Shown piece by piece: positions 11,061 to 32,612 of a DNA stretch of 64,000 nt. The notes under the pieces are model-generated. The model was given only the letters and a program-made list of their open reading frames with translations. It was not told where the DNA came from and ran no database searches. Numbering within the stretch: the stretch's first letter is position 1; each line of letters begins with the position of its first letter. Made by a program: the position numbers and the translations under genes. The DNA comes from a virus: positions 14,759 to 78,758 of the IMG/VR virus record IMGVR_UViG_3300024052_000085. The stretch is one strand, 5' to 3'.

Positions 11061-11090
11061 TTGAATGTTTAAAAGAAGCATCCCTATAAT
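11061..11090 (+). promoter_or_regulatory. Sigma70-like promoter of the structural operon
   Basis: TTGAAT-N18-TATAAT. Confidence 0.5.
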
Positions 11091-11138
11091 TAATTAAGGT
11101 GTTACACACTATTTACTTTTTTATGGAGGTAGTCAATC

Positions 11139-11228
11139 GTGGCTAAAGTTAAAGGATACTCTTACAAACGGAAGGGTAAAACCATCCGAGTAAAGGGTTA
11201 CAGTCGCAAAAAGTCCAAGAAACGCTAG
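11139..11228 (+). CDS. 29-aa highly basic peptide (putative genome-condensing protein)
   Basis: GGAGGT RBS, GTG start, MAKVKGYSYKRKGKTIRVKGYSRKKSKKR; not in the ORF track. Confidence 0.75.
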   Translation: MAKVKGYSYKRKGKTIRVKGYSRKKSKKR

Positions 11229-11280
11229 TCTTGACTACTTTGGACATTAAAGTTAAAATATTGAAAGGAGGGAACACCTT

Positions 11281-11481
11281 ATGATTGAGTCAGTTATTAA
11301 CGCTTTGGTTGCAGGTCTGATCGGCACGATTTCTTTTGTAGTTATCAAGAGTGTCGTTGCGGCTCAGAACACCACAGGTTGGTCTGCAGCTGAAATTGCC
11401 ATCGTGACAATTATTCCTGTTGTTCTGGCGATCTTGGTCGTCGTCGGCATGTTTATGGGTCTCACGAAGCTTCGTTCCTAA
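11281..11481 (+). CDS. Putative major capsid protein 1, hydrophobic hairpin (spindle-shaped-virus-like)
   Basis: Two hydrophobic helices, NTTGWS loop, IIPVV, basic C-terminus; strong RBS. Confidence 0.7.
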   Translation: MIESVINALVAGLIGTISFVVIKSVVAAQNTTGWSAAEIAIVTIIPVVLAILVVVGMFMGLTKLRS

Positions 11482-31210: not shown

Positions 31211-31264
31211 TGGCAGAGTGGAATAGAGAATATTTTGATGGGAGAGCATACGTATAATGGCAGA
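31194..31264 (+). repeat. 24-bp direct repeat of a gene junction enclosing a 15-aa minigene
   Basis: GGAGAGCATACGTATAATGGCAGA at 31194 and 31241. Confidence 0.9.
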
Positions 31265-31805
31265 TAGAGAATGTTTTGATTGGAATAGAGAATACTATGG
31301 TAAAACCCATCCACATAAAAAGTTCTATAACATTCCAGATGTAGAAGGAACTAAACATTTAGATATAGGGTGGAGCGAAGGAGATTTCCCAATAATTGGA
31401 GCTACTCTGGGAGTAGATCCTGGTAGTAATCGAAAATTTTGGAACTTTGAACACTCTCCAGAAGAGGATAAAGAAGTAACAGACTTTTATAGAAGTATAA
31501 ACTTCGAAGAAATAGCTGCTAGTGGGACACATCTACCTTTTGCAAATGGAACTATAGACTCTGTATCATCTCAGCATTCAATGGGAATGGAATTCGATTT
31601 AGAAGAGGGATTAGCAGAAGCTATCAGAGTACTTAGGAGCGGAGGTAAGTTAGCAGTTTTAACATGGGTTACTACTGAAGAAATTGAAGAGTTAAGAAGA
31701 TGGTTGAGAAGTCAACCTGTACAAAATGTTAGAATAAGAAAAAGAGATAAAGATGAAGACACTGATAATTTATTTCTTTACGGAATAGAGTTCACTAAGG
31801 TATAA
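31257..31805 (+). CDS. Class I methyltransferase-like protein
   Basis: LDIG, LGVD, LPFANGTID, EAIRVLRSGG. Confidence 0.7.
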   Translation: MADRECFDWNREYYGKTHPHKKFYNIPDVEGTKHLDIGWSEGDFPIIGATLGVDPGSNRKFWNFEHSPEEDKEVTDFYRSINFEEIAASGTHLPFANGTIDSVSSQHSMGMEFDLEEGLAEAIRVLRSGGKLAVLTWVTTEEIEELRRWLRSQPVQNVRIRKRDKDEDTDNLFLYGIEFTKV

Positions 31806-31808
31806 TAA

Positions 31809-32612
31809 ATGAATAAATTAATGGCATTCTTCGTATTCACATTCATATGTGGGTCAATGATCAGTTTTACAATGGAAGGGGGTTCTGGTATAGTAACAAC
31901 TCATCTAAAAGACACTATTACCGCTTCACAGAATGTTATACCTGTAAATAGTATTGTAGGCTTTTTAACTGGAGGTGATAGGATAACAATCGAAGATGAA
32001 GATATTAGATATAATAGCGTACAAGCTGCAGGAATAATAACTTCTGTAGATCCGGGAGCTGATGGATTATACGACTCTAGCACCTTGGGTGCTGCTATAA
32101 ATAATGATAACGTTTGTGAAGATGGATCTATATGGTTAGCCAGTAGAACCTTAATAACTAATGCATGCGTAGGAGCTGTAACAGGAGAGATAGCTTATAC
32201 ATGCCCTTGTATGGTCCTAACAAATAGTAATACGGTTCCAATAATGAGAGGAGCTGATTCTTATGATAGTGAAGAGACTGAAGCTAAACCTCATGCAGGG
32301 CCAGATAACTCAAAAGTACCCCCAAGAAGAGGTACTAAAGTCTTTAACAGAGGGTCTTCATTAGTAAATCAGGCTTTAGGAATGAACATAGCTCAAAGTG
32401 CGACAACAGCAGGTGTTGCCAAAACATTTGTTCTATTGCCTATAGCATTGAGTAAGACAGCAATAAAACTAGTAGCTTGGGACTTCGCATATCTAGAAGG
32501 AAACTTTTCATACTTTAAGTATATGATCTTGTATCCTATATCTGCAGGATTCATGTATACCATACTAATAACCGGTGCAAGTCTATTCCAGGGAGTCTTT
32601 AGAAGAGGATAA
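31809..32612 (+). CDS. Membrane-anchored putative virion protein
   Basis: N- and C-terminal TM helices; TL...IT....I.V....GF...I..E.I.Y...RG...A..H phage-type domain. Confidence 0.65.
   Translation: MNKLMAFFVFTFICGSMISFTMEGGSGIVTTHLKDTITASQNVIPVNSIVGFLTGGDRITIEDEDIRYNSVQAAGIITSVDPGADGLYDSSTLGAAINNDNVCEDGSIWLASRTLITNACVGAVTGEIAYTCPCMVLTNSNTVPIMRGADSYDSEETEAKPHAGPDNSKVPPRRGTKVFNRGSSLVNQALGMNIAQSATTAGVAKTFVLLPIALSKTAIKLVAWDFAYLEGNFSYFKYMILYPISAGFMYTILITGASLFQGVFRRG

Follow-up and report, generated by a model that had tools for sequence, protein, structure and literature searches.

The stretch analysed here (the window, 64,000 nucleotides) is the last 64 kb of the 78,758-bp virus record IMGVR_UViG_3300024052_000085, which we call G000 and whose positions are also labelled L003. 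Its positions 11061-32612 probably form the virion-morphogenesis module of a large, non-lytic, non-tailed and probably lemon-shaped virus of a marine bacterium, with a double-stranded DNA genome that is linear and about 80.4 kb long; we give this reading a probability of about 0.62. An earlier note, made from the letters alone, had proposed a membrane-extruded spindle- or filament-shaped virus of a bacterium. The spindle-type capsid protein, the pI/Zot-like ATPase, the lack of head-tail genes and the bacterial-type genes all stood, while the shape and the host are deductions from this gene content.

Every part that the earlier note had listed for this region was found where it had been placed, on the plus strand (Table 1). 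The module opens with a short operon that encodes a 29-residue basic peptide and, in tandem, two 66-residue hydrophobic proteins with strong GGAGG sites ahead of their genes. The two copies share 64 of 66 residues and their DNA is 79% alike. They had been likened to the VP1/VP3 paralogues of fuselloviruses, but are near-identical duplicates. The stability of the terminator hairpin that closes the operon was reached by none of 200 shuffles. The promoter can be seen at its place, yet such sites are no more frequent in the region than chance allows (4, against 2.9 ± 1.7 in shuffles). The basic peptide is a candidate genome-condensing protein. Its homologues precede the capsid genes in loci L004, L030 and L006, a different basic open reading frame (ORF), of 80-101 residues, stands there in L009 and L026, and no basic ORF was seen before the capsid gene of L012. 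Small proteins with 'Y..R..V...RK.Y' helical stretches, similar by eye, are also encoded at L003:276-701 and L003:1363-1713, in the terminal repeat, and at window 56352-56630; basic proteins that resemble them by eye lie ahead of the capsid gene at L009:470-775 and L026:11473-11715.

The 66-residue protein has 42 close homologues (65-97% identity) and 44 cluster representatives at E ≤ 0.001. Alignment A2 comprises 48 rows, ten of them close homologues, and leaves out seven new representatives (four with loop insertions, one truncated, one N-terminally extended and one 2079-residue repeat protein). Only W34 and P46 are nearly invariant in A2, and a T/S-x-W-(10-12)-P motif occurs in 43 of the 48 members. 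The NTTGWS loop highlighted in the earlier note is present in the window copies but is not a family motif, being found in 5 of the 42 close homologues and 2 of the wider 48. Structure prediction folds the protein into a two-helix hairpin (first helix 2-27, second helix 36-65) with a predicted local distance difference test score (pLDDT) of 86.7. Four homologues (P0055, P0057, P0060 and P0066) carry partly Cys-rich inserts of 30-60 residues in the hairpin loop, possibly displaying a variable surface domain.

As a ranked control, the A2 profile was compared with 60 hydrophobic ORFs of SSV1, His1, BLv25 and M13. The first rank went to the ORF annotated as the major capsid protein (MCP) of Halorubrum spindle-shaped virus BLv25 (HHalign 93% over 59 columns, pairwise E 2.8e-7; HMMER E 3.5e-8). 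The second went to His1 ORF21 (HHalign 56%, E 1.1e-4), which we take to be the His1 capsid protein and which its record calls hypothetical. The third rank reached only 9%, and M13 p8 scored 0.2%. PF25665 (His1_capsid) is the family matched by most A2 members, 10 of 48 at E ≤ 0.1, with a best E of 0.0019 that lies below the cut-off; His1_capsid is also named on 11% of the members of the top Atlas cluster. The top row of a Foldseek search of the PDB was SSV19 VP1 (7xdi_A; probability 0.92, TM-score 0.70, non-significant E 0.58). VIA-align of the hairpin returned generic helical matches only (best Z 8.7), BFVD gave no match at E ≤ 0.001 among 348 listed (a betafusellovirus VP3-like protein stood at rank 50), and a PDB sequence search with the single protein gave nothing useful. 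The ranked control, the PF25665 matches and the top Foldseek row support the proposed spindle-virus-type capsid protein. The better model is His1/BLv25 and not SSV1; the closest sequence matches are halovirus capsid proteins and not those of fuselloviruses. The case is good but not overwhelming that the 66-residue protein, a two-helix hairpin homologous to known MCPs as is characteristic of spindle viruses, represents a capsid protein of the halovirus branch.

Further along the module, the Zot-like ATPase of the earlier note was confirmed. Its profile matched M13 pI far better than the candidate ATPases SSV1 B-251 (27%) or His1 ORF16 (21%), and 73 homologues were found. The order PolA, capsid gene (one or two copies), large protein, 105-, 196- and 107-residue proteins, ATPase and anchored proteins recurs, with some shuffling, in relatives that span 33 to 56% GC. 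Capsid gene and ATPase stand together on the contig of G001 and on G002, G003, G206, G207 and G208; the 4.8-kb record G209 has the ATPase without a capsid gene. The capsid/ATPase family is common in seawater and sediment data. The 196-residue protein is a candidate membrane partner of the ATPase. For the variable 2203-residue protein, neither a Pfam nor a useful PHROG match was found. Its C-terminal W-x-Q-G...PP domain recurs in eight of nine positional homologues, and our guess is an internal or assembly protein. Its identity as a virion RNA polymerase or a zinc protease was considered and found no support, since the protein lacks DxDGD and HExxH motifs.

Among the named PHROG matches of 119 ORFs there was no head, portal, tail or lysis gene, bar two weak ones, the P-loop of the ATPase to a terminase family (phrog_2666) and a tail-chaperone match at E 0.19. 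Six-frame searches for terminase (PF03237), HK97 capsid (PF05065) and VirB4 (PF03135) were empty in all five records searched, with positive controls detected. No portal family was found in the per-ORF scans, the sole search that covered portals. Pfam scans of the ORFs gave no relaxase, coupling protein or type IV secretion system (T4SS) family, the family matches included no integrase or recombinase, and neither a secretin (pIV) nor a rolling-circle initiator was found. The PHROG, Pfam and six-frame searches thus bear out, across an essentially complete genome, the claim that head-tail and conjugation genes are missing. The outcomes named beforehand as refuting were an HK97 head-tail module, a better pilin match accompanied by T4SS or relaxase genes, and a demonstrated archaeal host; none was found. 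The IMG/VR 'provirus' labels of G002 and G206-G209 were considered as a sign of integration and set aside. Neither host genes nor an integrase occur in the parts read, which look wholly viral, and the membrane-protein region may have been mistaken for host DNA.

The record is labelled linear and 55% complete (CheckV estimate). The final 116 bases of the window are the exact reverse complement of record positions 1623-1738, and this match reaches the contig end, revealing a collapsed 1,738-bp inverted terminal repeat (L003:1-1738). The repeat holds three ORFs, and its left end opens with a G-rich run followed by short direct and inverted repeats. Contigs from four metagenome runs (X1-X4) support it. 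In X1, a 1,724-bp contig spans 15-1738 and a 76,964-bp contig overlaps 1709-1738 at both ends. Contigs of X2, X3 and X4 pass at 1738 from the repeat to the right-end sequence; others, of X2 and X4, begin at 1709 and run into the left arm. On the simplest reading, the genome would be linear with inverted terminal repeats and measure 76,904 + 2 × 1,738 = 80,380 bp. It is judged essentially complete because the contig ends in a collapsed inverted repeat shared by both ends. ORFs at both genome ends face inward, and the window has only three intergenic gaps longer than 150 bp and no tRNA genes.

A 574-residue protein with family B DNA polymerase (PolB) motifs is encoded left of the window (G000 12666-14390). 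Its five-row profile matches His1 PolB (94%, E 8.6e-8, 225 columns) and finds a G206 homologue outside the alignment (E 1.5e-13). With its predicted model (pLDDT 44, poor), phi29 polymerase was matched in the top nine rows (best E 5.8e-5, TM-score 0.15), and a PDB sequence search gave nothing useful. By these matches, the protein is a divergent, putatively protein-primed PolB of the His1/phi29 kind, beside PolA. From its position, the adjoining 229-residue protein is a candidate terminal protein. This pair of genes is kept with PolA in six records, and PolA with its uracil-DNA glycosylase (UDG) domain is kept in G000, G002, G003, G004, G005 and G206. No family matched a primase or a replicative helicase. 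Terminal repeats and a protein-primed PolB would fit protein priming.

A bacterial host is favoured, as the gene content suggests. The record encodes RpoD region 4, PolA, Sak4, a DUF669 single-stranded DNA-binding protein (SSB), type I FolE, dut and a lipobox protein, in agreement with the bacterial-type content that had been claimed. The RpoD region 4 protein stands alone (95 residues, L003:2794-3081, E 8.9e-21) and might act as a sigma mimic or appropriator. Words resembling a Shine-Dalgarno site stand ahead of 48 of 90 ORFs (background 11%), a feature that does not discriminate Bacteria from Archaea. The three Atlas clusters nearest to the lipobox protein are mostly Chloroflexota (0.87), a weak lead only towards a Chloroflexota host; the C-terminal part of the protein has one homologue. 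That no secretin was found would suit a host that lacks an outer membrane. No host name emerged when 30 proteins were looked up in clusters, and the five runs that contain at least half of the left end are all 2018 seawater metagenomes; a further 19 runs with a small share of it are not counted as evidence of habitat. The sole ATPase locus in genome contigs lies on an 8.8-kb, all-viral contig (44% GC) in G001, a bin named 'uncultured bacterium'. G001 was not taken as host evidence: it has Omp85 genes (diderm), the ATPase occurs in 1 of 201 genomes of its phylum (G001 itself), and the contig is probably mis-binned.

Several observations weigh against the proposed virus. On the side of the capsid protein, the 7xdi_A match has an E of 0.58 and helical hairpins resemble many unrelated proteins. 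The single 66-residue protein of the window fails to reach PF25665, and the match to SSV1 VP1/VP3 does not rise above noise (2% or less), VP1 being the SSV1 ORF that we take it to be. A PDB profile search ranked the conjugative pilin 8cw4 (E 0.75) ahead of 7xdi (E 3.4). The ATPase weakly matches phrog_2666 (E 6e-4), the capsid gene lies within the flanks of only 2 of 39 metagenome ATPase loci (most of them short), and L043, L052, L056 and L061 have 10 kb upstream of the ATPase without a capsid gene. Eleven PHROG matches are to families without a name and the majority of ORFs match no family, so that a structural gene of very divergent sequence is possible. PF03175 is not matched by the PolB-like protein, whose motif C holds a single Asp and whose model is poor. 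Depth in X1 is 56.8 over the repeat and 50.6 over the unique part, a ratio of 1.1 and not 2, which loss of protein-capped ends could cause; moreover, X1 is possibly the source sample and X1-X4 possibly one campaign. As for the host, the RpoD-like gene was not found in the other loci compared, and pattern scans of genome contigs returned no capsid locus, the one ATPase locus and no host link.

Four of the remaining proteins of the module are secreted or anchored. The claim of secreted proteins with C-terminal anchors held for the 368- and 2564-residue proteins; the 441- and 267-residue proteins scored an N-terminal segment only. In L012, L038 and L042 the 441-residue protein matches the N-terminal part of one protein of 885-1123 residues. 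The 2564-residue protein is a candidate adhesin or terminal fibre, and a PDB sequence search with it gave nothing useful. Beyond the module, a glycosylation cluster (window 34150-42895) holds the GT2/GtrA gene, a 470-residue protein with many transmembrane segments and a cupin; genes like these trail the module in L042, L043, L047, L052 and L061. Three short ORFs that by eye resemble methyltransferases, together with an FkbM methyltransferase, lie at window 2898-3374, 31257-31805, 37965-38534 and 50405-51319, one of the four within the structural module.

Table 1. Features of the module and of its surroundings, in window positions unless G000 is given.
Feature	Positions	Strand	Remarks
Conserved 229-residue gene, 3' part in the window	1..321 (G000 14390-15079)	+	Adjoins the PolB-like gene
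UDG-3'exo-PolA DNA polymerase	8610..11054	+	Immediately ahead of the capsid gene in 8/8 records holding the region
Sigma70-like promoter candidate, capsid operon	11061..11090	+	TTGAAT-18-TATAAT, 10/12 consensus matches
29-residue Lys/Arg-rich peptide	11139..11228	+	GTG start, GGAGG upstream
Major capsid protein candidate, copy 1 (66-residue hydrophobic helical hairpin, His1/BLv25 type)	11281..11481	+	
Major capsid protein candidate, copy 2 (66 residues)	11530..11730	+	
Intrinsic terminator ending the capsid operon	11761..11805	+	14-bp hairpin + U6, -23.8 kcal/mol, z -5.26
2203-residue acidic protein without membrane segment, variable	11823..18434	+	C-terminal W-x-Q-G...PP domain
Conserved 105-residue protein	18442..18759	+	
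Conserved 196-residue protein, two membrane segments	18792..19382	+	
Conserved 107-residue protein, immediately ahead of the ATPase	19382..19705	+	16/18 metagenome loci >3 kb
pI/Zot-like assembly ATPase (putative), without membrane anchor	19717..20514	+	PF05707 E 1.4e-8; HHalign M13 pI 92%
Small proteins: 68-residue soluble, 101-residue with two transmembrane segments	20511..21022	+	
368-residue secreted protein, conserved, C-terminal membrane segments	21101..22207	+	Hydropathy scan
441-residue secreted protein	22204..23529	+	N-terminal membrane segment only (hydropathy scan)
2564-residue secreted, C-terminally anchored protein, DNRLRE domain	23516..31210	+	NF033679 E 1.1e-10, over the cut-off
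Conserved 267-residue membrane or secreted protein	31809..32612	+	Scored at the N-terminus only (hydropathy scan)
GT2/GtrA polyprenol-phosphate glycosyltransferase	34150..34980	+	GT2 genes also after the module in relatives
653-residue lipobox protein, PT repeats	58000..59961	+	
Right copy of the 1,738-bp inverted terminal repeat, first 116 bp	63885..64000	-	Exact inverted match

A working scheme can be drawn from these parts. The short, self-terminated operon yields the basic peptide and the two near-identical hairpin proteins, and the hairpins may enter the cytoplasmic membrane with no signal peptide to direct them. The ATPase, tethered at the membrane by the 196- and 107-residue proteins, would feed the condensed genome into the growing shell, and by analogy with inovirus pI and spindle-virus budding the shell would bud without lysis. 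The anchored secreted proteins, to which the viral glycosyltransferases probably add sugars, could form the tip and adhesin. Replication would begin by protein priming at the repeats via the PolB-like enzyme, with PolA probably taking on bulk synthesis or repair. A lemon shape is likelier than a simple filament, given that an 80-kb DNA in extended form would measure about 27 micrometres. More tentative, at somewhat below even odds, is an extended version: an undescribed, globally spread family of linear, non-integrating viruses of about 80 kb with true lemon-shaped virions in Bacteria, perhaps hosted by SAR202-type Chloroflexota without an outer membrane. Such viruses would join an archaeal-virus capsid and an inovirus-type ATPase to PolB initiation at the ends and PolA extension.

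The nearest rival keeps the bacterial, non-lytic virus and lets the hairpin protein build either a long filament or a membrane particle of pleomorphic shape, in line with the proposal for the IME1 elements of Dehalococcoidia. The closeness of the ATPase to M13 pI, rather than to its spindle-virus counterparts, favours a filament, and viral fractions rich in IME1 show filaments and vesicles in the accessible part of that preprint (10.64898/2026.09.15.751708). The capsid profile, however, matches spindle-virus proteins and not M13 p8, and the filament would need the full length of the extended genome; we consider this shape unlikely. Less probable again is a spindle-shaped virus of a marine archaeon that acquired bacterial or phage genes. 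Its capsid protein and PolB do have haloarchaeal-virus relatives, and there are weak archaeal glycosyltransferase matches (AglJ E 5e-9). ANME-1 spindle viruses reach 45-73 kb, some have two MCPs, and ANME-1 viruses carry QueCDEF, according to the portion of the source available (10.1101/2022.07.04.498658). The same portion describes PCNA/RFC/primase/TFB-type proteins in ANME-1 viruses (10.1101/2022.07.04.498658), whereas no PCNA, RFC, primase or TFB was among the matches listed here (in one scan, the best 25 of 45 families). RpoD region 4, PolA, Sak4, the DUF669 SSB, type I FolE and the lipobox protein also speak against an archaeal host.

If the 66-residue proteins were instead pilins of a DNA-transfer appendage, the element would be linear and plasmid-like. 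The weak match to 8cw4 points that way, and a linear genome with repeats and a protein-primed PolB fits linear plasmids too. The BLv25 MCP match is far stronger, phage-type replication and DNA-modification genes are present, VirB4 is missing from the five records and the Pfam scans showed no transfer genes, all of which makes this account quite improbable. The least probable account, largely refuted, is a tailed phage with head and tail genes that escape detection through divergence or lie beyond the contig. It draws on the CheckV estimate, on two very large ORFs without families, on PolA, Sak4 and Que genes typical of tailed phages, and on Atlas clusters whose few members with a record bear the label Uroviricota. 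Against it, both ends join one inverted repeat, the window has just three gaps above 150 bp, and the terminase and HK97 searches stayed empty while their positive controls were detected. We retain the probably lemon-shaped bacterial virus as the preferred reading.

QueC, QueE, FolE and QueD genes lie at window 3581-8620 and 55623-56036, and a conserved 261-residue gene before PolA, for which no family match was obtained, might serve as a base-exchange enzyme in 7-deazaguanine DNA modification. Many small ORFs encode CxxC zinc fingers (window 3377-3580, 35881-36248 and others), among them a set of three paralogues; CxxC ORFs are numerous in His1 as well. Two paralogous ORFs in tandem, with 129 and 134 residues (window 48954-49747), have DNA 80% alike over 93 bp. 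A dual-specificity phosphatase-like ORF, its family match assigned by eye, is found at window 62368-62919, and an orotate phosphoribosyltransferase-like ORF at L003:11498-12031.

In the parts available to us, published accounts call spindle-type capsids or virions exclusive to archaeal viruses (10.1101/2022.07.04.498658; PMC10866085), and the largest spindle-virus genome named there is 72.6 kb (10.1101/2022.07.04.498658). If the preferred reading is true, the genome of about 80 kb would exceed that size, and a large bacterial lineage with a spindle capsid would shift the archaea-only boundary. Such a lineage would also inform two questions: whether the morphotype is older than the divergence of Bacteria and Archaea or passed between them, and how inovirus extrusion relates to archaeal budding. 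Current tools misread such genomes: the record was scored 55% complete though nearly whole, and five relatives were classed as proviruses. Because data from seawater and sediment contain 42 close capsid and 73 ATPase homologues, a class of chronic, non-lytic infections in the sea may have gone uncounted, for which the conserved capsid protein and ATPase offer direct markers.

Among known systems, Halspiviridae (His1) and BLv25 share the hairpin capsid protein with its T/S-x-W...P loop. His1 further has a linear genome with terminal repeats, a homologous PolB, a glycosyltransferase and signal-peptide proteins with C-terminal anchors. Linear double-stranded DNA with inverted terminal repeats (depth ratio 1.1, not 2) and a protein-primed PolB (with a divergent motif C) are both found here. 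However, those viruses have genomes of 13-14.5 kb and not 80 kb, infect haloarchaea, lack PolA, sigma-like and Sak4 genes in their records, and match the ATPase at 21%. The His1 gene set of about 14 kb is not reproduced; homology is limited to capsid and PolB in a genome with PolA, Sak4 and Que genes. Fuselloviridae (SSV1, SSV19) share the hairpin fold, with 7xdi_A as the top Foldseek row, and a basic-protein gene beside tandem capsid genes. They differ in noise-level sequence similarity, in circular, integrating 15-kb genomes against a linear one in which no integrase was found, and in VP1 and VP3 being divergent paralogues, VP1 with an N-terminal extension that the window proteins lack. The ANME-1 spindle viruses (Itzamnaviridae and Tepeuviridae), in so far as the available text describes them, resemble the present genome in their 45-73 kb, their structural and enzymatic arms and, in Itzamnaviridae, two MCP genes; they differ in an archaeal replisome (RNA-primed PolB, primase, PCNA, RFC), and Itzamnaviridae are circular (10.1101/2022.07.04.498658). 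Inoviridae (M13, Tubulavirales) share the pI/Zot-family ATPase. They have a single-helix p8 coat and small circular single-stranded DNA, whereas here there is no p8 similarity, the ATPase has no anchor, the double-stranded genome is twelve times larger, and no pIV secretin or rolling-circle initiator was found. The hallmark genes of Caudoviricetes (HK97 capsid, portal, terminase) and the VirB4 and relaxase of a conjugative T4SS pilin system were not found either.

Closest in kind are the IME1 elements of Dehalococcoidia, which according to the accessible part of the preprint measure 21-28 kb, are integrated or circular and encode a tyrosine recombinase for integration at tRNA sites, a primase-helicase, a pI-like ATPase and proteins that best match SSV1 VP1 structurally. 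Viral fractions are dominated by them, and the proposal is that they are viruses that bud and are likely filamentous, with their morphology unresolved and the genome not linked to a particle (10.64898/2026.09.15.751708). IME1 elements are bacterial, as the present virus probably is, and both show no tailed-phage hallmarks but a pI/Zot ATPase, two small hydrophobic VP1-like proteins and anchored surface proteins. The shared ATPase and VP1-like feature is one of protein kind, by description and not by sequence comparison to HOG00/HOG04. Unlike IME1 as described there, the genome is 80 kb, linear with terminal repeats, and has a protein-primed PolB with PolA; integrase, recombinase and primase were not found. 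The 'new virion type for Bacteria' announced in the earlier note is thus partly pre-empted, as a proposal, by that preprint (10.64898/2026.09.15.751708). The lineage described here differs in being four times larger, linear and non-integrating. No description of an 80-kb linear lineage like this was found in a literature search that most subscription papers lay outside, and there is a fair chance of a new lineage of family level or higher in a new host domain. The virus belongs to none of Halspiviridae, Fuselloviridae, Inoviridae, IME1 and Caudoviricetes, as each fails a tested feature; judged from its genes, it would work like a His1-kind spindle virus equipped with an inovirus-type ATPase.

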